DNA of 64,000 bases from an uncultured Clostridia bacterium (GTDB lineage Bacteria > Bacillota > Clostridia > Christensenellales > UBA1242), in contig CAKVHZ010000004.1 in NCBI GenBank assembly GCA_934754445.1, positions 30 through 64,029 of the forward strand, written 5' to 3'. The notes below the pieces were generated by a model. The model was given only the letters and a program-made list of their open reading frames with translations. It searched no databases and was not told the DNA's origin. This document shows, in pieces, positions 8,535-28,612 of the stretch (the first letter of the stretch is position 1; every line of letters starts with the position of its first letter). Position numbers and translations under genes: made by a program.

Positions 8535-8915
8535 ATTAAGCGATTATTTCTTTTTGCCTTTCGTTTTGTCATTCTGTTTCAATATTTGTTTCAGTGTTTT
8601 CTAATATTTGTTTTTCTTGTATTTTGAGTTTTTAATAAATTCACTATATAAATTTATATACTATTTAAATTTCTAAAAAACATCATTAAGTATTTACATT
8701 TTTAAACAAAAATTATAACTAGTTTTGTTAAAGAAGATAAAGTATGTTTGTTTTATGGTATAAATATTGAATTTTCTAGTTTGAGAATGTTTGACAAAAT
8801 GTATTTATATTGCAATAATATTAATATTAAATATTTTTACAATAGATTAACTTTTAAATTTAAAGTAGATTAGTATGTTAAAATTATAAAATGTAAATAT
8901 TTGGGGAAAAGAATA

Positions 8916-10391
8916 ATGAATAATTTAAACAACAAAAAAATTGGTGTGCTTTGTCACATTACTAGTTTGCCATCAAAATATGGTATAGGAGATTTAGGGG
9001 AAGAAGCATTTAAGTTTATAGATTTTTTAAAAAACAATAATTTTAATGTGTGGGAAGTTTTACCGCTTAACAAAATTAACGATTTTAATTGTCCTTATGG
9101 AACAAACAGTGCATTTGCTTTTGAAGAACTTTTAATAAGTTTACAACCTTTTATAACCCTTGGTATTTTAAGTGAAAAGGAAGTATTGCCTTTAACAAAA
9201 TTAAGCCAAGAAAAAGTAGATTATGCAAGTGTAAGAGAAATAAAAACAAAACTATTTAATGAAATTTATAGTAGATATGGTAAAAATTTTAAAAACCAAA
9301 TTGATAAATTCTTTGAAAATAATAAAGGTATTTACGAGTATTGTGTTTTTGCAAGTTTAAAAGATTATTATAAAGTTAAAGTTTGGCGAGATTTCCCTGA
9401 AAGAATTAGAATGCATGAAAAAACTGCCATTAATAAAATTCTTCCACAAATAAAAGAAGATGTATATAGATATGGTTATCTTCAAATGATATTTATTGAA
9501 CAATTTGGGGAAATTAAAGAATATGCTCATAAAAATGGTATTGAAATTTTAGGCGATGTCGCAATTTATTGTGAACCAGCATCTTGCGATGTATGGGCTT
9601 ATAAAGAAATTTTTAAACTTGACAAAAATCTTCAACCTACTTGCTATGGTGGTGTTCCTGGCACTATGGCTGGCAATGAACAAAATTGGGGAACTTGTAT
9701 TTACGATTGGGATATGCTTAAAAAGAATGAATATTCTTGGTGGGTTGATAGAATTCTTAATTTGCTTAAAAATTTCGATATTTTAAGAATAGACCATTTT
9801 ATGGGTGTTGTAAAACACTATGAAATTCCTGCGAATGCAAAAAATATTAATGGACACGAATGGGTTTTAGGTGGCGGAGATGACTTTTTAAAAGTTTTAT
9901 TTAAAAAAGTTCCGCAAAAAAGTTTAGTTGCAGAAGATTTTGGCGATAGTCCAAAAGAGTGTCAAGAACTTATTAATAAGTATAATATAAAAAATATGCG
10001 AGTTTTACTATATGCTTTTGATGGTAACGAAAATAATACTCATCTTCCACATAATGTAAAAGAAAATTCAATATATTATATAGGCACACATGATAATGGA
10101 ACTTTAAAAAGTTTTGTAAATGACCTAGATGAAAAACAAAAAGAAAGCATACTTTCGTATTATAAACTTGATAAAAATTGTAGCCAAGAAAAACTTATGG
10201 ATACAATTATTAAAAGTGTTTTAAATAGCAAGTCAGATTTCGTGATTTTTAGAACACAAGATTTGTTAAATGAAGATGACACTAGAAGAATGAATATACC
10301 TGGTGTTGCAGCAGGTCAATGGGAATATAGACTTGATAAAAACTATGCAAACTTATATAGAAAATATAATGTTTTAGGACTTTGTAAATAA
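8916..10391 (+). CDS. malQ: 4-alpha-glucanotransferase (amylomaltase, GH77)
   Basis: GVLCHITSLPS near the N-terminus and LRIDHFMG catalytic-region motif. The ATG at 8916 is preferred over the TTG at 8901 because GGGG lies upstream. Confidence 0.85.
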   Translation: MNNLNNKKIGVLCHITSLPSKYGIGDLGEEAFKFIDFLKNNNFNVWEVLPLNKINDFNCPYGTNSAFAFEELLISLQPFITLGILSEKEVLPLTKLSQEKVDYASVREIKTKLFNEIYSRYGKNFKNQIDKFFENNKGIYEYCVFASLKDYYKVKVWRDFPERIRMHEKTAINKILPQIKEDVYRYGYLQMIFIEQFGEIKEYAHKNGIEILGDVAIYCEPASCDVWAYKEIFKLDKNLQPTCYGGVPGTMAGNEQNWGTCIYDWDMLKKNEYSWWVDRILNLLKNFDILRIDHFMGVVKHYEIPANAKNINGHEWVLGGGDDFLKVLFKKVPQKSLVAEDFGDSPKECQELINKYNIKNMRVLLYAFDGNENNTHLPHNVKENSIYYIGTHDNGTLKSFVNDLDEKQKESILSYYKLDKNCSQEKLMDTIIKSVLNSKSDFVIFRTQDLLNEDDTRRMNIPGVAAGQWEYRLDKNYANLYRKYNVLGLCK

Positions 10392-10552
10392 TTATTATAA
10401 TTTCAATATAATTTTACATATATAAAGGCTATTGAAGATAACCTTAACATTTTCACAAGAAGCGTTTAAAGGTTAACATTTTTAAATTTTATTTAAACTT
10501 GACTTTTTATGTTATTTATGTTAAATTTATTTTATTAAAAGTAGGAGATTTT

Positions 10553-11158
10553 ATGAAATTTTATCATGCAAGTGATGTTGACAATTTAAAAGAATTAGCA
10601 CCACAACAATCAAACTATATCCAAAATCCAACACTGTTTTTTTCTTCCAAAATTGAAAATGTACTTATCTATCTTGCAAACCCTGTAAAAAGGTTTTATG
10701 AAAAAAAGTATGGTAAATCGAACCAAATTTTTCAAAAATTTGCAACTTATGGTTTTAACAAAGAAAAACTTTTGTTCATAGACGAATACTATCCAAATGC
10801 TTTACAAGAAAATTTTGGTAATGTATCTGGATATATTTATGAAATAGAAACCGAGCCAAGCAATCTTGTGGAAAATAAAATACCTTTTGTTTATTCCACA
10901 AATCAGCCACAAAAGGTTATTAATTGCACATATATTCCAAATGCTTTAGACTTAATTTTAGAGTTTGAGCAAAAAGGTTTAATAAAAATTAATCGTTATG
11001 AAACATTGAGTGAAAAAAAGATGCAAATAATTAAGCAACAAATAAAAGATTGCTTTGCAAAAACTGACGATAAAATCTTTAAAGAATTTCTTGTTGAAAA
11101 ATTTCCAGATTTTAAATTGGAACAAAGCACCGATGTTGAAGATTTGCTAAATAAATAA
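10553..11158 (+). CDS. Hypothetical protein
   Basis: ATG preceded by SD taggaga, 201 aa, no motif recognised. Confidence 0.6.
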   Translation: MKFYHASDVDNLKELAPQQSNYIQNPTLFFSSKIENVLIYLANPVKRFYEKKYGKSNQIFQKFATYGFNKEKLLFIDEYYPNALQENFGNVSGYIYEIETEPSNLVENKIPFVYSTNQPQKVINCTYIPNALDLILEFEQKGLIKINRYETLSEKKMQIIKQQIKDCFAKTDDKIFKEFLVEKFPDFKLEQSTDVEDLLNK

Positions 11159-11164
11159 TAAGCG

Positions 11165-11200
11165 AAAAAACTAGCAAAGATAAAAATTTGCTAGTTTTTT
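11165..11200. terminator. Bidirectional terminator between convergent genes
   Basis: 14-bp stem aaaaaactagcaaa / tttgctagtttttt with A- and T-runs on either side. Confidence 0.8.
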
Positions 11201-11227
11201 ATAAGAAATGTAAGTTTGATTACTTTT

Positions 11228-11839
11228 TTACTTTTGTTTATTGTTTTTATTTTCAGTTGGGGTTTTTAATGTTTTTATAAAATGACTTAATATTAAAACA
11301 ATTTCTATAGGTAATCCTAAAAGGAAAATTAACCATAAGTGATATTGAATAAATTGACAATATAAACTTGCAATTAACGACCAAATAAAAAGTGATGAAA
11401 TATATAAATTATAACTTTTTTTACCCCAAAGTCTATTAAAATAATATAAAACTATACTACTTGCGGGAATTGACCAAACAAAAACTTGCCAAAGGATAAA
11501 ATGGTTATAAATTTTACAATATAAAAATATTACAATGGCAACTAACCAAACTATAGTAGTGGATAAAATTGTGCAAACAATTTTATTCGCTTTTTTATTT
11601 GTTAATTCTTGAGTTATTACTTCTTTAGAATGTTCTTCAAATAGATATGTTAGTGGAACACCTAAAGTTTCGCTTAATAGTTGCAAAGTTTCTATGTCGG
11701 GTAGAGATTCGCCTTTTTCCCACCTAGAAATTGCTTTGTCTGAATAATGTATTGCTTCGCCTAATTCTAACTGAGTTAGGTTTTTTTGTTTTCTTAACAT
11801 TACAATATTGTTAGAAATTATTTCTTTTATATTTTCCAT
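11228..11839 (-). CDS. Membrane-tethered XRE-family HTH regulator
   Basis: N-terminal HTH_3 signature (LRKQKNLTQLELGEAIHYSDKAISRWEKGESLP) followed by about four transmembrane segments. Confidence 0.8.
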   Translation of the reverse strand: MENIKEIISNNIVMLRKQKNLTQLELGEAIHYSDKAISRWEKGESLPDIETLQLLSETLGVPLTYLFEEHSKEVITQELTNKKANKIVCTILSTTIVWLVAIVIFLYCKIYNHFILWQVFVWSIPASSIVLYYFNRLWGKKSYNLYISSLFIWSLIASLYCQFIQYHLWLIFLLGLPIEIVLILSHFIKTLKTPTENKNNKQK

Positions 11840-12030
11840 ATTTTATTTTATCATAATTTTTTTTAAAAAAGCAATTATTTTGCTAAAAAAGGCTAATTCT
11901 CGAAATATGGGAGTTATTTTTTTTAATTCTCACATGCAAGAACTAAAGTGTAGAGTTAAAATTTAAGACTTCTCTTTACAATAAGAATATGTTTAGTTTA
12001 TAATTGTGCCGTGCTAAAGGATGAAATTTA

Positions 12031-12972
12031 ATGAGAAAGAAAAAAGAAACTAATCAAGAAGTTATTAAAGCAAAAAAACAAATGAGAATCACAACATTAT
12101 TAATTATAATTTTTGTTGGACTATTTGTTGGTATATCAATTGGTATATATTTTAATTCTCTTAAATTAGACCCAAACAGATATAACTTTGATATTAATAC
12201 TTTAGTTGATGATGTAGAGCCTATAAAAATTGAGGCAAAAACAGAATCTCCACAAGAGTTAGGTGCTACTAAAAGTTGTGTGCTTGCGTTTTATACAACT
12301 TTTAACTATCAAAAAGTTGAAATTATAGGTAATGGTCTTGTTGTTGCTAAAGCACCTTTTGTAGGAAATGTAAATCAAATAATTAATGCTAGAACAATAA
12401 GAGTTGGCAACAAACTTTTTACGGAAAATGTAAGCGTTAGTAAATATGCAAAAGCACTAAATAGATATTATGTTACTGATGATAATATTTTGCACTATAG
12501 TGGTAGTTTATCAAACAATATTGTTACATGGAACACAAATGCTGACAATATTAGTAAAGATGCAACAAAAACTATGGCACAATATAAAGAAAAATATAAT
12601 TGCACAATGTATGATTATATGAATTATATTGTCTCTTCTAAAACTGTCGTAACTTCTAGTGAAGTTGAAATAAATGAAGACGGTAATTTTGCTTTTACTT
12701 TAACATTAGATAAAAGTAAATCGGTTGTTAATTATGTTAAAACTATGAAAGATACGGGGGGATTAGCAGATTATCCAGATTTTACTTCTGACCCTAAAAT
12801 CACATTAACAATTGATAAAGATTATAGAATTTTAAAATTTGTAAGCGAAGAAACTTACAATGCGAATGTTGGAATTTCGGCAAAATCAACTGGAACATTA
12901 ACAAACACCTTTAAGTATGATGAAGATTTTGCTATTCCCGAGCTTACAGATACAACAGAAATTAGTAATTAG
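12031..12972 (+). CDS. Membrane-anchored hypothetical protein
   Basis: 313 aa with a single N-terminal TM (ITTLLIIIFVGLFVGISIGIYF). Its stop lies 8 nt before the giant ORF. Confidence 0.65.
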   Translation: MRKKKETNQEVIKAKKQMRITTLLIIIFVGLFVGISIGIYFNSLKLDPNRYNFDINTLVDDVEPIKIEAKTESPQELGATKSCVLAFYTTFNYQKVEIIGNGLVVAKAPFVGNVNQIINARTIRVGNKLFTENVSVSKYAKALNRYYVTDDNILHYSGSLSNNIVTWNTNADNISKDATKTMAQYKEKYNCTMYDYMNYIVSSKTVVTSSEVEINEDGNFAFTLTLDKSKSVVNYVKTMKDTGGLADYPDFTSDPKITLTIDKDYRILKFVSEETYNANVGISAKSTGTLTNTFKYDEDFAIPELTDTTEISN

Positions 12973-12980
12973 AGGATTAT

Positions 12981-15900
12981 ATGAAAAAAATTTTAATATA
13001 TATATTTACTTTTATATTAACTGTTATTGCTTCGGCCCTTGGAACAATTGGCATAAACAATATTTTTTTGCAGGCGAGTTCAAAGGGTAATCAAGAAAAT
13101 CAAACTACAGTTACTCCCACAAAAGAAAAATCAGACGGCGAAAAATTACTTGATGGACTTTTAAGTTTAAATGGAATAAACATTAATTTAAATGTGAATT
13201 TATTAAATAATAATACATCTACACAACTTATGAGTGTTTCAAGCGAAAACAAAAATAATGTTAAAACAAATATTAAGTTTAATGGCAGTTTTAGTATTCA
13301 AGATTTAGAAAACATTAAATTAAAAGGGACATTAACTATCACTAATGCAAGCACCAACATTGTTTTAAATATTTCATTCTTAAATAATGTTTTATACCTT
13401 TCTAATGATTCTATGAATATAAAACTAGAAGTCGCTAGTTTAACAAAAATCTTTGATTTACTTCCACAACTTGGACTAAACCTAGATTTAGGTATTGATA
13501 TGGGTAGTATAGATTCGCAAGAATTACTATCTAACTTACAAAATCTTAAAGCTGAAGTTTTAGAAGATGGCAGTTTAAAAATGCCTTTTAAAATAACTGA
13601 TGATTTATGTTTAAATATTTTTGCTGATAAAGATTATGTGGTTACAGGTATTGAAACTGATATTTTAAAAATAAAAAATAATCTTTTAAAAATTGATGCA
13701 GTTATTAATAAAAATGAAGAATTGCAAATTGAAAGCCCAGATGTTGATGATAGTTTTGCCGATGTTACAAAAACAATAAACATTCTAGACAATGTAAAAG
13801 ATGTTTTAAGTAGCAAAAATTTACATGTTTATGTAAATGCTAGTTCTGTAGGTAAATTACAAGCAAATCTAAAAGGTGATGTTTATTTAGATTTTAACAA
13901 TAAATTTAATTTGCTAACCATTTTGAAAGTTGAATATAATAATAAAACTTATGATGTAACTTTTAGTTGTTTAAATGACACAATTTATTTATCTTTAAAT
14001 AACTTAAAATTTAAAATAACTAAAGAAAATTTAGAAGAAACTATTGACTTTATTGTTAAAGAGTTTAATCTAGACAAAACTGAAATGTTCAAGACTTTTA
14101 ATTCAATTACTAATTTTGACTTAAAGAGTATAAAAAATAATATAAATAATATTGATATAAATAACTTACTAGAATTTTCTAAAGGCAATGAAAATTCAAT
14201 TTGTCTAAAAATTAATAGTAAACTACTAGGCATAGAAGAAGACTTTAATGTTGAAATGAAATTTGATGATGAAAAATTTAATGGCATAGTTTTATCAAAC
14301 ATTAATGTTTTAGATAGTGTTGTTAATGCCGAAATTACATATAAAGATAACTTTGATATGATAGAAATTGATACAAAAGAATATCAAAGTTTAGAAAATT
14401 TAAAAGATTTTATAAAATCAACAAAAACTACAATTGATAAATATTTAAACGAAAAACAATTTGGAATAAAATTAACTGATTTTAATATTGTTTTAAATAA
14501 TCAAAGTTTTTTTGTAAACGGAACAATATTAGTGAACTTAAAAAATGCTATTAAAGAAAATAACGAGTTTGATATCAGCAATTTAAATGGTTATGCAAAC
14601 TTAACTTTATTAAATAATCAAAAAACTTATAATGTGATAATCCATCTACAAAATGGGCGAGTATATTTATCTTATAATAATTTAAATTTAAGCGTAGATA
14701 TAAATAAAGTAAAAAATGTAGTAGAAATAGTAAATCAAATTAAATTTATAAGTGAAAGTTTAAATAATATTAATTTTACAGAAACTACAATGCGAGAACT
14801 TATAGAAAAATCTAAACAACAATCAAATCAATTTAAATTTGCCCTTTCAGATGTTTTAAGTTCAAGCACCATAGAAAAATTTAAAAACACATTAAAAACT
14901 AATTTAAACGATTTTAACTTAGATGATATAAAACAATTTAGTTTATCAGATAAACAATTATCAATTATTTTAGCTAAAACTTTATTTAATCAAGATAATG
15001 ACATTGAATTAAATTTAGGATATGATAAATTAATTAATGAAATAAGTTTTAATTTAATTAAAGTTAAAACTATGAGTGTTTGTGGAACAGTTAACTTGTT
15101 AGAGAACTATCAAGTACCTTTAATTGACAAAAACATTTATTCAAGTTTAGATTCTATTGAAAACTTATTTAATGCTATTTCTAACACTGCAATAGATATT
15201 GTTGATGATAAACATATCACTTTTGATTTAAACACTGAGTTTATTAACACAAAATTTGAGAAAAATTCTAAAGATGTTATCACTAAAGAAACAGAAACTT
15301 TAATATCTTTACAACCTTCAAGTTTTGCTAGTTTTGATTTTAGTGATGCGTATAGTTATGAAAAAAATAAAAACAATTTTGACTTTAAAAAATTAAAAGC
15401 TCAAATTACTTTTAATGTTAATGTAACGACTAAAATTTATCCTTACGAAAATGGTGTAAAAAATAATACTCCAACTAAAACAGTAAACAACACACATAAT
15501 TTAGAAATCACTTATTTAAATAATGTTATTTACATTAAATTTAATAAAATGTATGCAAAAATAAGTGGGGATAGCATTAAAGGCATTATCTCTACAGTTT
15601 GTGAAATGTTAAACATAGATGTTAATGAAAATTTAATTCAAAATATCAAAAATTTGATTTCACAAAATGGTGATAGCAATAATTTATTAGAAAAATTAAA
15701 CGATTTAATTATAAATAGCATTAATTTAACAGACTCTAACCTAAAACTAGATTTAACAACGAGTAAAATTGGTAATTTAAAAATCAACTTAGATTATAAT
15801 AATTTAGGATTAAGCAAATTAAATATTAAAAATTTAAAATTAAAAAATAATCAAATAAATAACTTAGATATTAATTTGAAAGAATTTGAACCAATTTCTT

Positions 15901-18077
15901 ATAATTTAAACAATAATTACATAGATTTATCAAATATTGACGAACTTTTAATAGCTGTTAAAAACACTACAGAATTTAACGATTTTGAAATAGATGGAAG
16001 CATTAATTTAAAATTAAAAGTTTTAAGCGTAAATATTGACTGGAATATTCCATTGAATGCAAAAGTAAAACTTTTAGATGAAGGTTTTGAAGCATCTATC
16101 AAAATTGGTGCAATTCCAGTTATTCCAGGTGTGAATGATGATACTCCTTATAAAGCTGGTAACACAGTTAGTGGAATTTACTCAGCACTAAATAGAATTT
16201 TAAATGTTTATATTAAAGATAATATGGTTTACTTCCATAGGTCAGAAGAAGTGCCAGTATTCTTAGTAGATAATAGAATTTATGAAAAGAAACTAAAAAT
16301 TCATATTGATACACTTTTAAACGACCCACTATATTATGTTTTACAATACGGTTTTGGCTTTAGTGATTCAATTATGAGCGAAATAAGCAAATCATTTAAA
16401 AAAGAAAGAGAAAATCCTTTAGATTACTCAAACATTTTAAAAGATTTTAGTAGTAGTTCTAATGCTTATTCTTTAACTTTAAATTTAAAAGAACTTGTAG
16501 AAAATGATAAATTAGACACAATGACTTTAGGTGTAATCACTAAAATGTTTAATGAAAAATCTATTATTGGTGCAATAAACTTTAATATGTATATGCCATT
16601 AACCGATAGTGTTAATATTACTTTAAGTTCAAACGAATTGTTGCATAAAAATATAGGTCAAACTATTAATTTTGATAATGTTTATGAATATATTAATAAT
16701 AATTCTCAATATAAAGAAGGGGCAGAGTGGGATGCATATAATGGTGACTGGCAACTTGCTGGTCAAAGAAAATTCACTCTAAGTTTTGAAACTAATAGCA
16801 AGCAACAACTAGAAAATATTGTTGCAATTGCTGGTTCAAAAATCACTCTTCCTACTTTAAATAGTTATTATCAAGATGAAAATAAAACAAGAAAAACTTA
16901 TACATTCGCGGGTTGGTATACAACTAAAACTTTTGATAAAAATACTGAGTATACAAGTAATGTAATGCCAAGAAAAGATACTACACTTTATGCTAAGTGG
17001 GAAGTAACTACTTTAAATTATATTACTATTCATTTTGTTACTAATGGTGGAAGCGAATTAGAAGATTTATGCGTTCTTGAAAATTCAGTTATAAGTTTAC
17101 CCCAATATTTTGAATTAATTACTATCGAAAACGATTTAGGTATATTTACTAAACAATTTGATGGTTGGTGCTTAGATGAAAATTGTGAAGTTATGTTTGA
17201 AAATAATATTGCCCCAAATAGCGATATCACTTTATATGCAAAATGGTCGGTTATTGATAGTAAAGAAACATATTTAGTAACAATTTATGATAATGCAGAA
17301 AAAATATCAACAAGAAGAGTTTTAGAAGGAAATTCCATAACTCTTGCTGGTAATAAATTCACAAGCACAACTAAATATTATTTAGATAGTGAATATAAAA
17401 CCGAAATTGATATTGCTTCGTTTGTAATGCCAAGTAACGATGTTGTTATTTATATAAAAAATGAATATAACGTAACGGTTAAATCTGATTATGGTGTAGT
17501 TACAAATAATACTATATCAATTTATCAAGGTAGCATTGTAGAAATTGTTAGTCAACAAGATTATTTTGAAGATGATGGCACGCAAACTGAAAGAACAATC
17601 TATACTTTTAATGGTTATTATTATGGTGGCGAAAAAATCAATGATATTTCAAATTTTATCATGCCAAATAAAGATGTAACAATTGTTGCAAATTGGACTA
17701 TTGTAGTTAAACAATATGTTACTATTACCTTTAATGTAAACTGGGCTAAACCAGATAGTTGGCAAGATAACAATAGTAATGCTTTTGGTAAAATAACTTG
17801 CAAACAATCAGCAGTAGCACTGCAAAGTTTTAAAATTTTAGAAGGTTATTCATTTAATCCATCAATTTATACTGCACAGTGCAGTTATGAATATAGGGCA
17901 GTAGGAATTAAAAAAACATATAAATTTGTTGTTCATTCTTGGAGCATTAACGGAACAAAACAACTTTCTTACAACAAATTAGCAACCGAACCCAAAACAG
18001 AAAGTTATGATGTTTTAACAAATTTAACAATTACCGAAGACACAATTTTATACGCTGTTTGGAAATACGCAGGTTAA
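12981..18077 (+). CDS. Giant surface protein (1698 aa) with C-terminal Listeria-Bacteroides (Flg_new-type) repeats
   Basis: N-terminal signal/anchor. About five C-terminal repeats of the type TFAGWYT...LYAKW, FDGWCLD...LYAKW, FNGYYYG...IVANW and ...LYAVWK. The N-terminal two thirds contain a recurring ..YL.NN.IYLS.NN.. module. Confidence 0.8.
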   Translation: MKKILIYIFTFILTVIASALGTIGINNIFLQASSKGNQENQTTVTPTKEKSDGEKLLDGLLSLNGININLNVNLLNNNTSTQLMSVSSENKNNVKTNIKFNGSFSIQDLENIKLKGTLTITNASTNIVLNISFLNNVLYLSNDSMNIKLEVASLTKIFDLLPQLGLNLDLGIDMGSIDSQELLSNLQNLKAEVLEDGSLKMPFKITDDLCLNIFADKDYVVTGIETDILKIKNNLLKIDAVINKNEELQIESPDVDDSFADVTKTINILDNVKDVLSSKNLHVYVNASSVGKLQANLKGDVYLDFNNKFNLLTILKVEYNNKTYDVTFSCLNDTIYLSLNNLKFKITKENLEETIDFIVKEFNLDKTEMFKTFNSITNFDLKSIKNNINNIDINNLLEFSKGNENSICLKINSKLLGIEEDFNVEMKFDDEKFNGIVLSNINVLDSVVNAEITYKDNFDMIEIDTKEYQSLENLKDFIKSTKTTIDKYLNEKQFGIKLTDFNIVLNNQSFFVNGTILVNLKNAIKENNEFDISNLNGYANLTLLNNQKTYNVIIHLQNGRVYLSYNNLNLSVDINKVKNVVEIVNQIKFISESLNNINFTETTMRELIEKSKQQSNQFKFALSDVLSSSTIEKFKNTLKTNLNDFNLDDIKQFSLSDKQLSIILAKTLFNQDNDIELNLGYDKLINEISFNLIKVKTMSVCGTVNLLENYQVPLIDKNIYSSLDSIENLFNAISNTAIDIVDDKHITFDLNTEFINTKFEKNSKDVITKETETLISLQPSSFASFDFSDAYSYEKNKNNFDFKKLKAQITFNVNVTTKIYPYENGVKNNTPTKTVNNTHNLEITYLNNVIYIKFNKMYAKISGDSIKGIISTVCEMLNIDVNENLIQNIKNLISQNGDSNNLLEKLNDLIINSINLTDSNLKLDLTTSKIGNLKINLDYNNLGLSKLNIKNLKLKNNQINNLDINLKEFEPISYNLNNNYIDLSNIDELLIAVKNTTEFNDFEIDGSINLKLKVLSVNIDWNIPLNAKVKLLDEGFEASIKIGAIPVIPGVNDDTPYKAGNTVSGIYSALNRILNVYIKDNMVYFHRSEEVPVFLVDNRIYEKKLKIHIDTLLNDPLYYVLQYGFGFSDSIMSEISKSFKKERENPLDYSNILKDFSSSSNAYSLTLNLKELVENDKLDTMTLGVITKMFNEKSIIGAINFNMYMPLTDSVNITLSSNELLHKNIGQTINFDNVYEYINNNSQYKEGAEWDAYNGDWQLAGQRKFTLSFETNSKQQLENIVAIAGSKITLPTLNSYYQDENKTRKTYTFAGWYTTKTFDKNTEYTSNVMPRKDTTLYAKWEVTTLNYITIHFVTNGGSELEDLCVLENSVISLPQYFELITIENDLGIFTKQFDGWCLDENCEVMFENNIAPNSDITLYAKWSVIDSKETYLVTIYDNAEKISTRRVLEGNSITLAGNKFTSTTKYYLDSEYKTEIDIASFVMPSNDVVIYIKNEYNVTVKSDYGVVTNNTISIYQGSIVEIVSQQDYFEDDGTQTERTIYTFNGYYYGGEKINDISNFIMPNKDVTIVANWTIVVKQYVTITFNVNWAKPDSWQDNNSNAFGKITCKQSAVALQSFKILEGYSFNPSIYTAQCSYEYRAVGIKKTYKFVVHSWSINGTKQLSYNKLATEPKTESYDVLTNLTITEDTILYAVWKYAG

Positions 18078-18083
18078 TAAAAA

Positions 18084-18116
18084 ATAGAAAAAGGTTAATA
18101 CTTTTTCTATTTTTTT
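18084..18116. terminator. Bidirectional terminator
   Basis: Stem atagaaaaag / ctttttctat flanked by A- and T-runs, between convergent genes. Confidence 0.8.
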
Positions 18117-18142
18117 ATGTATATAAATATGTATTTATATGT

Positions 18143-18439
18143 CTATTTTAATAATTCTTTTAACGCAACTTTTTTGCTTTCAGGAAGATTTTTAATGATA
18201 GATAAGTTTGATTTGTCAATTTTATAACAGTTTACATCTTCATAAAAAAATTCTTCTGGGGTAATTCCACAAGCGTCTATAATATCTAAAACAATTTTCA
18301 TAGAAGGTTCAAATTCACCTGCTTCCATTTTTGTAATATAGGCAGAATTTTTGCCAATAGTTAAACTTAATGCTCTTGCACTATAATTTGCTTTGTTTCT
18401 AAAATATCCAATTCGCCTTATAACTTCTTTTAAATCCAT
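18143..18439 (-). CDS. XRE-family HTH transcriptional regulator
   Basis: 98 aa with an HTH_3-like segment (YSARALSLTIGKNSAYITKMEAGEFEPS). Confidence 0.8.
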   Translation of the reverse strand: MDLKEVIRRIGYFRNKANYSARALSLTIGKNSAYITKMEAGEFEPSMKIVLDIIDACGITPEEFFYEDVNCYKIDKSNLSIIKNLPESKKVALKELLK

Positions 18440-18577
18440 AAAATGTCCCTTAATTTTATATTGTTTATCTATACAATAATTATACTTTTAATAATAAATT
18501 AATATTATTCGTTTAAAATGATAAATCTAAAAATTTCGCAACATTTTATTGCTTATAATGAAATATTTTAAATACTA

Positions 18578-18606
18578 TTGACTTTTTAGGGAATGTTATA
18601 TATAAT
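18578..18606 (+). promoter_or_regulatory. Sigma-70-type promoter in the divergent region
   Basis: TTGACT, 17 nt spacer, TATAAT. A second extended -10 (TGgTATAAT) lies at 18707-18715. Confidence 0.5.
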
Positions 18607-18744
18607 TATAGATAATAAGAACCAAATAATACTATTATATTGTAAATTGAGTTTTTAATTAAAAATTTAAAAAATGTAATTTAAAAAAACAATTTAAGAA
18701 ATTTTATGGTATAATTGGTTATAATTAAAACAAAGGAGCGAAAT

Positions 18745-19560
18745 ATGAAAATTAGTGATAAAGATATAAGTGAGATGGTTGAAAAATACAAGAAAAAAAC
18801 AAAAAAGAAATGTTATGAAATGCAACTATTTGTAGCAGATTATGATGACGAAATTAAAATTTTAGATGATAAACTTGGTGGAAGACCATATCTTCCTGTT
18901 GGTGAAAAATATCCAGTAGACAAAAGAGGGAATCCTATGCCTCTTCTTTTACAAATTAATTTAAAAAATGTTGACTTAAAAAATTATCCAAAACAAGGAA
19001 TTTTAGAAGTGTTCACAAACATTGAGTATCCAATGGAATATCAAGTTAAACTTTTTGAAGAAGGTCTTGAATATCAAACAGAATTTCCAGAAACAAAAGC
19101 ATATTACAATGGCGAAGAGTTTGAATATTTTGTTAAAAAACCACTTTTAGTAAAATTAAGAGAAACAACTATGCACATGCCAACCACTAATTACAAAAGC
19201 AGGAAAATTGGTGAAAAAATTTTCAAAGAACAATTTGAAAATAAAGTTAGCAAGGAAGAACTTGACGACTTTTTAAAAAATAAGTTTAGAGATTTTTGGG
19301 ACGACAAACTTGATGATGAGATTGATAAACATTTAGATTATTATTGGTTTAACTTTGGTGGATATCCAAATTTTAGTCAATATGATGCAAGACTAGACCT
19401 AAGACCAAGGAAAGATGAATGCGTTTTTTCATTTGACCCAATTGGTTATGAAGATTATGTTGAAATTGGCGATAGTGGAACAATGTGGGGATTTATGACA
19501 AAAGAAGATTTGAAAAACGGCAAGTTTGAAAATATGTTTGTTGACTATGATTGCTGTTAA
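18745..19560 (+). CDS. DUF1963 / YwqG-family protein
   Basis: Signature LGGRPYLPVGEKYPVDKRGNPMPLLLQINL and C-terminal GDSGTMWGF, typical of YwqG-like proteins. ATG with SD aaaggag. Confidence 0.7.
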   Translation: MKISDKDISEMVEKYKKKTKKKCYEMQLFVADYDDEIKILDDKLGGRPYLPVGEKYPVDKRGNPMPLLLQINLKNVDLKNYPKQGILEVFTNIEYPMEYQVKLFEEGLEYQTEFPETKAYYNGEEFEYFVKKPLLVKLRETTMHMPTTNYKSRKIGEKIFKEQFENKVSKEELDDFLKNKFRDFWDDKLDDEIDKHLDYYWFNFGGYPNFSQYDARLDLRPRKDECVFSFDPIGYEDYVEIGDSGTMWGFMTKEDLKNGKFENMFVDYDCC

Positions 19561-19574
19561 AAAAGGAAATTTTT

Positions 19575-20267
19575 ATGAATAATGTTATAAAAATTAAAAA
19601 AGAAGATTTATTTGACCAAAAAGTAGGAAACTATTTATATGAAGAAAATGGCGAACTATATTTTTGTAGTAAGCCAAGTTCAGCGATGTTTGAACTAAAA
19701 AGAGATTACAAAAATTATGATGAAACTTTAAATCATCACATGAATTTTGATGACTATGTTCAAAAATTTTTAGAAATTTGTGCAAAAATAGAGAACAAAC
19801 CATCACTTATATTTTTAAACTATGTTCCAAAAAATGTTATGATACTAAATGAAACTGAAGGAAGTTATAAAAGAAATTATAGTTTTTTGACAAATCTAAC
19901 AAGTGATGAAGATTTTGAAACACTTAATACAAAGCCAAGTATTATTTGTGAACCAATAGGAGTTATGGAAATTTTAAGACAACTTGTTGAAACAAGAAGC
20001 GAAAATGAACCACAAACCGATGTTTTCGTATTTTTCAATGAACCTGAAAAATATTGCAACTTAGATGAATGCCCTGGCATTGATTCCATTCTAACTGCTT
20101 GTAAAAATCGTAGAATTTATTTAGTTTTTAATTTCGTAAATTCTTATAAATTCATTGAAAGATATGGAATAGAGAGTTATGATTTAATAGAAAATTATTG
20201 TTCGGTTAAATTTATTTGCAACTTTAACGGAGTTGTAGATATTCAACCAACCAATAAAGTGGACTAA
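19575..20267 (+). CDS. Hypothetical protein
   Basis: 230 aa from the ATG with SD aaagga. No motif recognised. Confidence 0.6.
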   Translation: MNNVIKIKKEDLFDQKVGNYLYEENGELYFCSKPSSAMFELKRDYKNYDETLNHHMNFDDYVQKFLEICAKIENKPSLIFLNYVPKNVMILNETEGSYKRNYSFLTNLTSDEDFETLNTKPSIICEPIGVMEILRQLVETRSENEPQTDVFVFFNEPEKYCNLDECPGIDSILTACKNRRIYLVFNFVNSYKFIERYGIESYDLIENYCSVKFICNFNGVVDIQPTNKVD

Positions 20268-20277
20268 AGGAGAAAAA

Positions 20278-21348
20278 ATGAGAGTATATAGTAAAAAATT
20301 AAAAAACAGATTTAAAGATTTAATTAGCGAAATTGACAATAATGACAACTTAAATAAAAGACAGTTTGCCGAGGAAAAGGTTTTGCCGTTCTTGTTTGAC
20401 TTATTTGATGAAATTGTGGCTAACGATGGTTTAGATAAAGTAGGGCATGGATTTATTGAAAATGCAGGTGTTAATATGGCGATTGATCGAACTTTATCAG
20501 GAAATAACTTTTGTATTGAAAAAAATAATTTTTTTAAAATGTGGAACAATGGCTATCCATTATATGCATTAGAAAACAATATGCGTTCGGTTTTTCATGA
20601 AGCTAGACATCTTATACAAAGAGAATTGGTAATGGAAAATGATATTTTGAAATTATCGCCATATTCAATAATTTATGCAAAAGAAGAAATGATTGCAGTG
20701 GTTAATTATGATTTTTATATAAAAAATCATGATGAGTTTTTAATGGAAATTGAAGCAAATAGTAAAGCATGCACAGGAAGTGCGGAATTCATTTCTAGTG
20801 CTATGCCAAATTCCGATTATGCTACACAATATGCGGACGAAAATGATCCTGAGTCTGAATTTGCTTATGTTACACCAATATCAAGTTATTTTAAAGATTC
20901 TGATTATTGGGTTAGAAATAAAAGTTATTTAATTTCTAATGCATTTGATAATGCCTTAAAAGAAATGTCAGAAGTAAGTCTGCTAAGTACATTTAGAGGT
21001 CATCCTATTCTTAAATTGGCTTATCATGAAGATGGGACGAAAAAAAGCCTTGAAGAAATATTGTCTTTGCGTAAAGATATTATTAAGGCTAATTACAAAA
21101 ATTTGCAAAAAATAATAAAAGTTGATGACTACAAAACTACTATTTCATGTCATATCAACAAAATATTTGCAGTAATTATTTCAACTGATAAAGAATTAAG
21201 TGAAGATTTTGAAAATTATCTAAAGCAAAAAGAAGATGAAAAGGCGAGTAAAACAGATGATTCTACATTGAAACTAGAACAAAAATACAAACCAAAATCT
21301 CCTGAATTTATAAAAAATCAAAAAAATAAAAATGAAAGAACATTGTAA
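20278..21348 (+). CDS. Hypothetical protein with a zincin-like HExxH motif
   Basis: 356 aa. HEARH motif (VFHEARHLIQRE) with a downstream MEIEAN glutamate. SD aaaggaga. Confidence 0.6.
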   Translation: MRVYSKKLKNRFKDLISEIDNNDNLNKRQFAEEKVLPFLFDLFDEIVANDGLDKVGHGFIENAGVNMAIDRTLSGNNFCIEKNNFFKMWNNGYPLYALENNMRSVFHEARHLIQRELVMENDILKLSPYSIIYAKEEMIAVVNYDFYIKNHDEFLMEIEANSKACTGSAEFISSAMPNSDYATQYADENDPESEFAYVTPISSYFKDSDYWVRNKSYLISNAFDNALKEMSEVSLLSTFRGHPILKLAYHEDGTKKSLEEILSLRKDIIKANYKNLQKIIKVDDYKTTISCHINKIFAVIISTDKELSEDFENYLKQKEDEKASKTDDSTLKLEQKYKPKSPEFIKNQKNKNERTL

Positions 21349-21388
21349 AATTAAAACTCTATAATAAGATAAATAATTAAAATTTTGA

Positions 21389-21419
21389 ACGCACCAAAGC
21401 AAATGTTGGTGTGTTTTTT
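21389..21419 (+). terminator. Rho-independent terminator
   Basis: Stem acgcaccaa / ttggtgtgt (one G-U pair) followed by a T-run. Confidence 0.7.
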
Positions 21420-21613
21420 ACTTATCAAGTAAAAACTTAGTATAAGTTCTTAAAATATATGTTATAATCAAAAAGAGTTTATTTAGAAGTGTGTCGCTAA
21501 CCCAATGATTTTTAGTTATAAATAAAAATTTTGTAAAAATAGGGGAATAAGAACCTGCTTAGCATACCCATGTGTTTCTAAAAAAATCGCCAAAATCCCA
21601 GGGAAATAAAGCG

Positions 21614-21673
21614 TTTAGCGATTTTTAATGAGTGGAGCTAACGAGCAGACTCGAACTGCCGACCTTTCGCTTA
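21614..21673. repeat. attL: orphan copy of the tRNA-Thr 3' part plus 19 nt of downstream sequence
   Basis: 60/60 identical to 28518-28577 when written out base by base. Confidence 0.9.
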
Positions 21674-21770
21674 GCAAAACTCTGTTCTAACACACAAGAG
21701 TTTTGCCCTATCTCCTAAATCGCCCATAAAATAAGCGAATTTGAGATATAAAAAATCAATTAGTGTAGTA

Positions 21771-28485: not shown

Positions 28486-28530
28486 AAAATCGCTAAAACC
28501 TTAGGAATATAAATGGTTTTAGCGATTTTT
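28486..28530. terminator. Bidirectional terminator downstream of tRNA-Thr
   Basis: 15-bp stem aaaatcgctaaaacc / ggttttagcgatttt. On the minus strand it is followed by a T-run. Confidence 0.75.
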
Positions 28531-28577
28531 AATGAGTGGAGCTAACGAGCAGACTCGAACTGCCGACCTTTCGCTTA
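28518..28577. repeat. attR: direct repeat overlapping the 3' part of the intact tRNA-Thr
   Basis: Identical to 21614-21673. It covers tRNA nt 36-76 plus 19 nt downstream. Confidence 0.9.
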
Positions 28578-28612
28578 CCAAGCGAATGCGCTACCTACTG
28601 CGCCACGTTAGC
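28537..28612 (-). tRNA. tRNA-Thr (anticodon GGU)
   Basis: The reverse complement folds as a 76-nt cloverleaf: acceptor GCTAACG/CGTTAGC, D arm GCGC-AGTAGGTA-GCGC, anticodon arm TTCGC-TTGGTAA-GCGAA, T arm GGCAG-TTCGAGT-CTGCT, with encoded CCA. Confidence 0.9.

Follow-up and report, generated by a model that had tools for sequence, protein, structure and literature searches.

The window analysed here is a stretch of 64,000 nucleotides (nt) of contig CAKVHZ010000004.1, from an uncultured Clostridia bacterium whose metagenome-assembled genome is 0.96 Mb long with a G+C content of 26%. Between 18143 and 21348 it holds four genes: an XRE-family regulator of 98 amino acids (aa) on the minus strand (P0004, 18143..18439) and, transcribed away from it on the plus strand, three open reading frames (ORFs) encoding a YwqG-family TYPP (DUF1963) protein of 271 aa (P0001, 18745..19560), a 230-aa protein that we call P2 (P0002, 19575..20267) and a 356-aa zincin-like protein (P0003, 20278..21348). 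The first-pass annotation of this DNA had described the same divergent arrangement, with gaps of 14 and 10 nt inside the operon, and both the ORF list and the sequence itself agree with it. We regard this block as an XRE-linked, protease-containing conflict or accessory module with two uncharacterised protein families; judging from the gene neighbourhoods of its homologues, the four genes form one regulated unit that probably belongs to a family of horizontally shuffled cassettes.

The 305-nt control region between the XRE gene and the operon (18440..18744, assigned to neither strand) contains a promoter for the operon, TTGACT-17-TATAAT at 18578-18606, which is close to consensus with a score of 11/12. 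A Shine-Dalgarno sequence stands ahead of each operon gene (GGAG before the ATG of P0001), with AGGA/AGGAG ribosome-binding sites at the gene junctions, and an intrinsic terminator on the plus strand with an 11-bp stem, 4 G-C pairs and a T run (21387..21416) closes the operon. With one strong promoter and one terminator, the three genes look like a single transcription unit. On the other flank, between the stops of the XRE gene and of a gene for a 1698-aa surface protein, the sequence can be read as an AT-rich hairpin (18081..18117, no strand assigned) of the form AAATAGAAAAAG-loop-CTTTTTCTATTT, with a T run behind it. Its stem has too few G-C pairs for the terminator scan to have reported it; it is a probable bidirectional terminator of the two genes.

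The structure of the Bacillus subtilis YwqG protein is available (PDB 1PV5), and the TYPP superfamily includes the eukaryotic PDCD2/Tsr4 proteins, which are chaperones of the ribosomal protein uS5. We know of no demonstrated function for any bacterial member of the YwqG family. The assignment of the first gene to DUF1963 is confirmed by a Pfam match of 105.9 bits (cut-off 23; E 5.1e-30) that spans profile positions 2-216 of 216. A YwqG-family TYPP protein is recognised by two repeats, a GGxP-like motif in each and a conserved Gln in the second (PMC4275035). In P0001 the two motifs, G45 G46 R P48 and G205 G206 Y207 P, are conserved in 22 homologues, among which the hallmark Gln, Q212, is nearly invariant. 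By these features, which it has in common with YwqG of B. subtilis, P0001 is a full-length bona fide member of the family. Compared with a sister strain, the gene shows purifying selection, with a ratio of nonsynonymous to synonymous polymorphism (pN/pS) of 0.16. A comparative study of 2014 found no clear bacterial function for TYPP proteins and proposed that they bind extended peptides in a chaperone-like manner (PMC4275035), and the literature that we searched held no bacterial function for YwqG. P0001 is accordingly best described as a predicted peptide- or protein-binding adaptor. Its only match in PADLOC, to a 2TM effector at E 0.0018, is regarded as noise, and against the PHROGs it gave a marginal match of unknown function (E 0.0056) in which no stretch passes on its own.

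The middle gene had initially been described as lacking any recognisable motif. This description did not hold, for its product relates to TraG-D_C and the ATPase domain of type IV coupling proteins. P0002 itself has no Pfam match and does not reach TraG-D_C at E<=1. Among the Pfam models of coupling proteins (T4SS-DNA_transf, TraG-D_C and TrwB_AAD_bind), TraG-D_C is matched by eight of the 12 members of the P2 family, at best with E 5.5e-6, and TrwB_AAD_bind by five of them. Moreover, residues 128-215 of P0002 match, in tblastn searches, the coupling proteins of 660-690 aa found in most congeners and in the same genome as the window, and hhalign aligns P2 with the latter protein with a probability of 79% (E 1.6e-5). 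When the two are compared by eye, VFVFFNEPE of P2 falls on VYFILDEFG of the coupling protein, and CKNRRIYLVFNF...ERYG...ENYC on GRSRRLFLMLIVQ...SKYG...NNCN. The likeness to VirD4/TraG/TrwB starts at the strand preceding Walker B and extends through RSRR...YG...NC. The structural model of P2 matches RecA, KaiC and STIV-B204 folds with probabilities of up to 0.99; being of low confidence (predicted local distance difference test, pLDDT, 59), it serves as corroboration only. A search of the PDB sequences with the P2 family profile found nothing.

On this evidence, P2 derives from the C-terminal half of the VirD4/TraG nucleotide-binding domain. Unlike coupling proteins, P2 is only 230 aa long, lacks a transmembrane region, an all-alpha domain and Walker A, and at two loci forms a fusion with an XRE helix-turn-helix (HTH); by its architecture, it is not a coupling protein. 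Since the Walker A motif GxxxxGK[ST] is absent from all 12 members, and the Walker B position reads FFNEPE, with NE for DE and hence Asn for Asp, where the genome's own coupling protein has LDEFG, P2 is probably a non-catalytic pseudo-ATPase. We also considered a split ATPase in which the HTH protein upstream of P2 at one homologous locus (HTH-370) supplies the missing Walker A half; this was rejected, as that protein (P0174) has no Walker A and resembles beta-rich repeats joined to a helical domain. The coupling protein of the same genome (681 aa; G000 contig C20 10606-12651, L046 1606-3651, minus strand) is full-length, with the Walker A GTTGSGKT and a poly-Asp C-terminal tail, and has homologues in most congeners. 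On contigs C6 and C8, this genome has two candidates for VirB4-like (AAA_10) proteins.

The HEARH of P0003 (H107-E108-A-R-H111) had been read as a zincin-type motif with a downstream glutamate, and comparison with divergent homologues supports this. In an alignment of 60 homologues (14-40% identity), H107, E108, H111, Y147, E157 and G253 are invariant, and Q114, E136, N150, A160, P243 and L245 nearly so, which gives the family signature HExxHxxQ ... KE ... YxxNHxxFxxExxA ... PxLxxxYxxDG(T/S)KK. The third zinc ligand, expected to be a glutamate on a later helix, could be the invariant E157 (ExxA context, helix 155-175) or the nearly invariant E136 (helix 130-142). In the AlphaFold2 model (pLDDT 83.6), a three-stranded sheet (56-81) is followed by the helix that bears HExxH (94-118), as modelled a zincin topology. 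Close relatives form only 7 clusters among 5.8 billion proteins, and a metagenome scan with a narrower alignment gave 7 loci only; an exhaustive profile search recovered at least 164 representatives of the family (clusters at 50% identity) at E<=0.001, many of them 400-1300 aa long, with the homologous region at differing positions.

P0003 has no significant match to any model in Pfam, NCBIfam, PADLOC or PHROG, and none of the 60 members matches Pfam at E<=0.001. Weak matches to DUF6782, which is annotated as a putative metallopeptidase, occur in 13 of the 60 (best E 0.0019); the literature searched held nothing on this domain. The PDB sequence search with the family profile likewise found nothing. 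The best zincin matches of the model in the Foldseek PDB search, MATCAP and BlaR1, reach only E ~0.2-0.3, and the Foldseek search of BFVD gives a best E of 2.7e-3; numerous matches at E 0.1-0.7 there are named after SprT, IrrE or lethal factor. An HExxHxxQ-E signature has been described for the PVC-metallopeptidases (Zhang et al. 2012, PMC3482391). Like these DUF4157 proteins, the zincin has HExxHxxQ, a downstream glutamate and three strands before the active-site helix. It differs from them in lying outside any secreted polymorphic toxin and in its extra motifs YxxNH and PxLxxxYxxDGTKK; the signature is present, with no match to the DUF4157 profile and no toxin or trafficking domains, and we do not place the protein in that group. 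The extra conserved motifs define a separate, unannotated family, whose members we take to be zinc metallopeptidases of gluzincin type.

The last 32 residues of P0003 (325-356) have pLDDT below 50, are rich in Lys and Glu and end in ERTL, so that this C-terminal tail is disordered in the model. The tails of P0003, P0010, P0024, P0172, P0173, P0029 and P0033 all consist of a charged disordered linker followed by a similar end motif (FERTL/F/M, FERGL, YERSM, FSRGR or FFRGR, that is F/Y-E/S-R-T/S/G-x in this subset of homologues), which could be a docking peptide. Such a tail, next to a domain derived from a coupling protein, may evoke a type IV secretion effector module, in which the zincin would be an interbacterial effector secreted via its disordered Lys-rich tail and recognised by the coupling protein, P2 would act, by mimicry of the coupling protein, as adaptor or holding factor, and the TYPP protein, or the SUKH proteins encoded at related loci, would be immunity proteins. 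The presence of a coupling protein in the same genome and in most congeners speaks for this explanation, as do the end motif shared by the subset of homologues and the immunity-type SUKH genes found upstream of the zincin. We nevertheless regard it as very unlikely, given that no type IV secretion genes adjoin any of the loci examined, that the fusion of P2 to a DNA-binding HTH fits a regulator better than an adaptor, that many zincin homologues have no tail, and that genomes of 26% G+C often encode lysine-rich tails.

The gene neighbourhoods of the homologues, read from precomputed Pfam annotations, extra Pfam scans and local hidden Markov models of the P2 and zincin families, provide evidence for the cassette. 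The informative loci are few and all come from related gut Clostridia. With 11 clusters in 5.8 billion proteins, the P2 family is very rare. P2 and the zincin share one operon at six independent loci: the window, L008, L007, L005, L001 and L042. The order in the window, and in the sister strain (contig L047), is divergent XRE, TYPP, P2 and zincin-356, and L008 has the same order with a long zincin at its end. At L007 a divergent XRE gene is followed by HTH-373, P2, SUKH-331, zincin-704 and ASCH, and at L005/L006 a 318-aa protein precedes P2, SUKH-332 and zincin-679. Two further loci begin with an HTH-P2 fusion: that of L001/L002 (603 aa) is followed by two SUKH genes and zincin-368, and that of L042 (308 aa), made of an XRE HTH and a complete P2 domain (hhalign probability 99.2%), by SUKH, TYPP and zincin-350.

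P2 stands without a zincin at L039 (TYPP, P2), at L010 (divergent XRE, HTH-370, SUKH, P2, GNAT-ASCH), at L011 (SUKH, P2 with a stop codon, NUDIX) and at L013 (HTH-439, P2), where the contig ends about 650 nt downstream. Zincins without P2 are found at L003, as a lone gene flanked by crp and a gyrase gene, at L049, after Fic and a multi-pass membrane protein, and at L051, after a 105-aa ORF; at L041 and L043 there is TYPP alone. In L049 (1732-4899), a close zincin homologue of 62% identity follows Fic and a 328-aa protein with multiple transmembrane helices, which stand where P2 or TYPP would be. Taken together, gene order points to P2 and the zincin as the recurrent core, with TYPP and SUKH as interchangeable or additive partners, and to an XRE-type HTH that is divergent, adjacent or fused to P2 depending on the locus. 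The proteins of 320-440 aa encoded directly upstream of P2 (L007 540-1658, L005 6990-7943, L010 4977-6089, L013 5487-6806 and, fused to P2, L001 3439-5250) have an N-terminal XRE HTH, a repeat-like beta-rich region and a helical domain.

The regulator itself matches Pfam HTH_3 (E 1.9e-8) and is highly conserved between loci. XRE-98 is 85-89% identical to the divergent 98/99-aa XRE proteins of three other P2 loci, the genes lying at 18143-18439 in the window, 2294-2590 in L008, 57-353 in L007 and 4419-4718 in L010, with a DNA identity of about 85% across the four. The cargo is much more diverged (P2 50-62% and zincin 18-47% identity), and DnaI of these organisms is only about 45-54% identical. 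XRE-98 shows no nonsynonymous change relative to the sister strain. The control regions of the same four loci align over TTGACT and about 40 nt on its 5' side, and in L007 the conserved block just upstream of the -35 element holds a perfect dyad, ATGTTTCA-N5-TGAAACAT. This block presumably acts as an operator, and XRE-98 probably represses the divergent operon promoter. Regulator and promoter thus behave, as far as the alignments tell, like a conserved head for variable cargo.

In ICEBs1 (ImmR/ImmA) and in the cyclic-oligonucleotide-based antiphage signalling system (CBASS; CapH/CapP), a repressor of the XRE type is coupled with a protease bearing HExxH, an established logic. By analogy, the zincin might be an anti-repressor protease of the ImmA/ImmR or CapP/CapH kind, which on a stress or invasion signal would cleave XRE-98 or HTH-P2 and so induce the operon, with TYPP/SUKH and P2 as payload or signal sensors. 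The cassette does link an XRE-type regulator to an HExxH protease on accessory DNA, and nearly all loci have such a regulator, either divergent or as a fusion with P2. Membership of the zincin in ImmA/IrrE was rejected: Peptidase_M78 (PF06114) is not matched by P0003 at E<=0.1 and does not figure in the families listed at E<=10 for the 60 members. Its gene also lies two or three genes away from the XRE gene and on the opposite strand, instead of adjacent to it, in the company of the extra partners P2 and TYPP/SUKH; zincins occur with no XRE gene nearby (L003, L014-L018), and we see no obvious effector payload to be induced. We therefore consider an anti-repressor role to be quite unlikely.

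The block ends 265 nt before a 64-nt repeat that contains the displaced 3' half of a tRNA-Thr(GGU) (21614..21677, minus strand), as the earlier reading had it. This repeat is 98% identical to 28518-28581, and the pair brackets a 6.9-kb islet with genes for an integrase and for SoFic-like, HEPN/AbiU2-like and SLOG proteins. The operon is outside these repeats. The sister-strain contig matches the window from 8740 to 21679 at 98.05%, the divergence setting in exactly where the tRNA fragment ends. Because the sister strain carries a different island there, the tRNA-Thr att site is an active integration hotspot. The island of the sister strain past the tRNA fragment (L047 12937-20816) encodes a sigma-70-like protein, a 912-aa AAA_11/UvrD-like helicase, T5orf172/MUG113 and an N6_N4 methyltransferase with RAMA. 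Membership of the block in the 6.9-kb islet was rejected, the block being outside the att repeats and common to the sister strain up to 21679. The first-pass annotation had also raised the possibility that the block is an older island integrated at this tRNA. We rejected this too, as the window holds two copies of the tRNA half and no third, and the block is shared with the sister strain. The block lies on a backbone common to the two strains and adjoins an integration hotspot.

The comparison with the sister strain further revealed a tract with no differences at all, from 19552 to 21353, that covers P2 and the zincin (about 1.8 kb). The background is about 5 differences per 250 nt, the flanks differ by about 2%, and the limits of the tract fall only a few bases from the P2 and zincin gene boundaries. 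This suggests a recent co-transfer, recombination or sweep of a two-gene piece. Since the two genes are identical over 1.8 kb to those of a strain that is otherwise about 2% different, they move as one piece.

A non-core, accessory distribution is apparent from the relatives: the zincin is absent from all 40, the DUF1963 gene is found in one, and a close P2 homologue in one as a pseudogene, ten more relatives matching P2 only via their coupling protein. Within the taxonomic family, a zincin relative of any kind occurs in eight of 151 genomes, the source genome included. The congeners are distant (DnaI 43-54% identical), and in the two that were inspected a different region lies downstream of dnaI/tRNA-Thr. 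In the congener G008 (L027, contig C2, 12767-13732) the P2 pseudogene has one stop, with a tyrosine-integrase-like gene some 3.5 kb from it. That the four genes are ordinary housekeeping genes, adjacent by chance, appears extremely improbable in view of this patchy distribution and of the shuffling of the genes between loci, even if distant long zincins are found among core genes and the TYPP gene is under purifying selection.

A resemblance to prophage-type modules, which had also been suggested, found no support, and we rejected a phage or prophage origin: neither P2 nor the zincin has a PHROG match, and no relative of either was found in the viral contigs of IMG/VR. Membership in a named defence system was rejected as well, P2 and the zincin having no match in PADLOC-DB 2.0 and TYPP giving noise only, and the earlier remark that the block matches no named system is thereby borne out. 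Defence-type genes are nonetheless frequent in the flanks of the related loci: type III restriction-modification and a SEFIR/TIR-domain gene at L005 (1-5111), a methylase and HATPase at L039, Fic at L008 and L049, and the SoFic/HEPN islet beside the block in the window. Judged by these flanks, the P2-SUKH-zincin operon of L005 is in a defence-island context.

Of the other explanations, the strongest rival is that the block is a polyimmunity-like array of independent binding or immunity genes, co-located only by accumulation, with TYPP, P2, SUKH and the zincin each countering incoming toxins, or other proteins, on its own. The genes of polyimmunity loci run in one direction with little space between them, vary from strain to strain and are often neighbours of recombinases (PMC3482391). 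The cassette is likewise co-directional, tightly packed, shuffled and, at related loci, SUKH-bearing, and its loci mix and match in the same way. The role of SUKH proteins in immunity is established, L001 extends into a long array of genes in one direction with DUF2441, NUDIX and GNAT genes among them, and in G008 the P2 copy is 3.5 kb from an integrase. In addition, the P2 and zincin subtypes do not co-vary, and their linkage is not obligate. The first-pass annotation had stated that DUF1963 proteins are known mainly from polymorphic-toxin and immunity neighbourhoods; we did not find this in the searchable literature, though the exchange of TYPP for SUKH lends it new, indirect support. While P0001 conforms to known YwqG proteins in sequence, its kind trades position with SUKH beside a zincin and a coupling-protein-derived domain, an exchange that was absent from the literature searched.

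An extended polyimmunity locus has been defined as four or more recognised immunity genes in tandem, uninterrupted by toxins (Zhang et al. 2012). The block fits in spacing and orientation; its array is just three genes, none of them from a listed Imm family, and the related loci have one or two SUKH genes. Its own genome has no SUKH gene, and no toxin system is seen near the block. A protease with invariant catalytic residues would be atypical of immunity proteins, and two very rare families occur together in six of about 12 loci, far above random assortment among more than 90 immunity families. Furthermore, the XRE HTH-P2 fusion and the highly conserved, dedicated XRE regulator point to a regulated unit. 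It is this regulator, a predicted enzyme whose catalytic residues are intact and the repeated pairing of rare families that set the cassette apart from polyimmunity loci, and we hold the accumulation of independent genes to be a doubtful explanation.

We tentatively favour, at somewhat less than an even chance, the reading of the block as an undescribed, modular, cytoplasmic conflict cassette with a protease effector, shuffled among gut Clostridia. We do so because P2 and the zincin, both from very rare families, are linked at six loci, and because of the compact operon, the tract over both genes that is identical in the sister strain, the HTH-P2 fusion, the conserved XRE-98, the invariant catalytic residues, the accessory distribution and the defence-type neighbours. 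The module could be of the abortive-infection or toxin-antitoxin type, or serve in the surveillance of invader proteins. Its three operon proteins, an adaptor, a degenerate ATPase-derived domain and a zinc metallopeptidase, would all be cytoplasmic. The protease would be the effector; the TYPP/SUKH binding modules would bind its target or an inhibitor and, together with P2, gate the zincin or choose its target, and P2 and the XRE protein would provide scaffold and control. The sequences show the gene structure, the identity of the domains, the conserved catalytic residues, the recurrent linkage and the accessory distribution; repression by the XRE protein, protein-protein interaction, protease activity and the conflict role are all points that we infer.

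Several observations weigh against a conflict cassette. Besides the protease, the block has no toxin-like or nuclease effector. The model of P2 is of low confidence, and that of the zincin has no significant structural match (best E 0.14 in the Foldseek search of the PDB). Close zincins occur without P2 (L003, L049, L051) and P2 without a zincin (L010, L011, L039), and distant long zincins stand alone among sporulation and housekeeping genes (GerA, rpoB, SpoIID); therefore, the zincin family as a whole is not dedicated to conflict. The subtypes of P2 and zincin do not follow each other, L008 combining a window-like P2 with a distant long zincin, which argues against a tight and specific P2-zincin complex. 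Finally, since all loci are from related gut Clostridia, part of the shared gene order could reflect inheritance instead of selection.

A more specific form of the conflict cassette can be proposed, namely a new cytoplasmic surveillance system of several components in gut Clostridia, in which TYPP or SUKH, as interchangeable sensors, would bind an invader protein, be it of phage or conjugative-element origin or an injected toxin. The dead copy of the coupling-protein ATPase would be a scaffold or decoy receptor, wired to DNA by the XRE fusion in some loci, and the zincin would cleave an invader or a host target, in the manner of the Lit protease. In this detail we consider the proposal unlikely. 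The literature searched contained no link of SMI1_KNR4 to phage defence.

If the linkage is functional, a cassette as small as 3.2 kb would define a zinc-protease family that has no significant Pfam match and would give the bacterial YwqG/TYPP proteins, for which the comparative study of 2014 left the role open, their first recurrent genetic partners. TYPP and SUKH would be mutually substitutable, which would tie TYPP to immunity-type binding proteins. Likewise, an ATPase domain of a secretion system would have found a second use as a module without catalysis, in some cases joined to a transcription factor.

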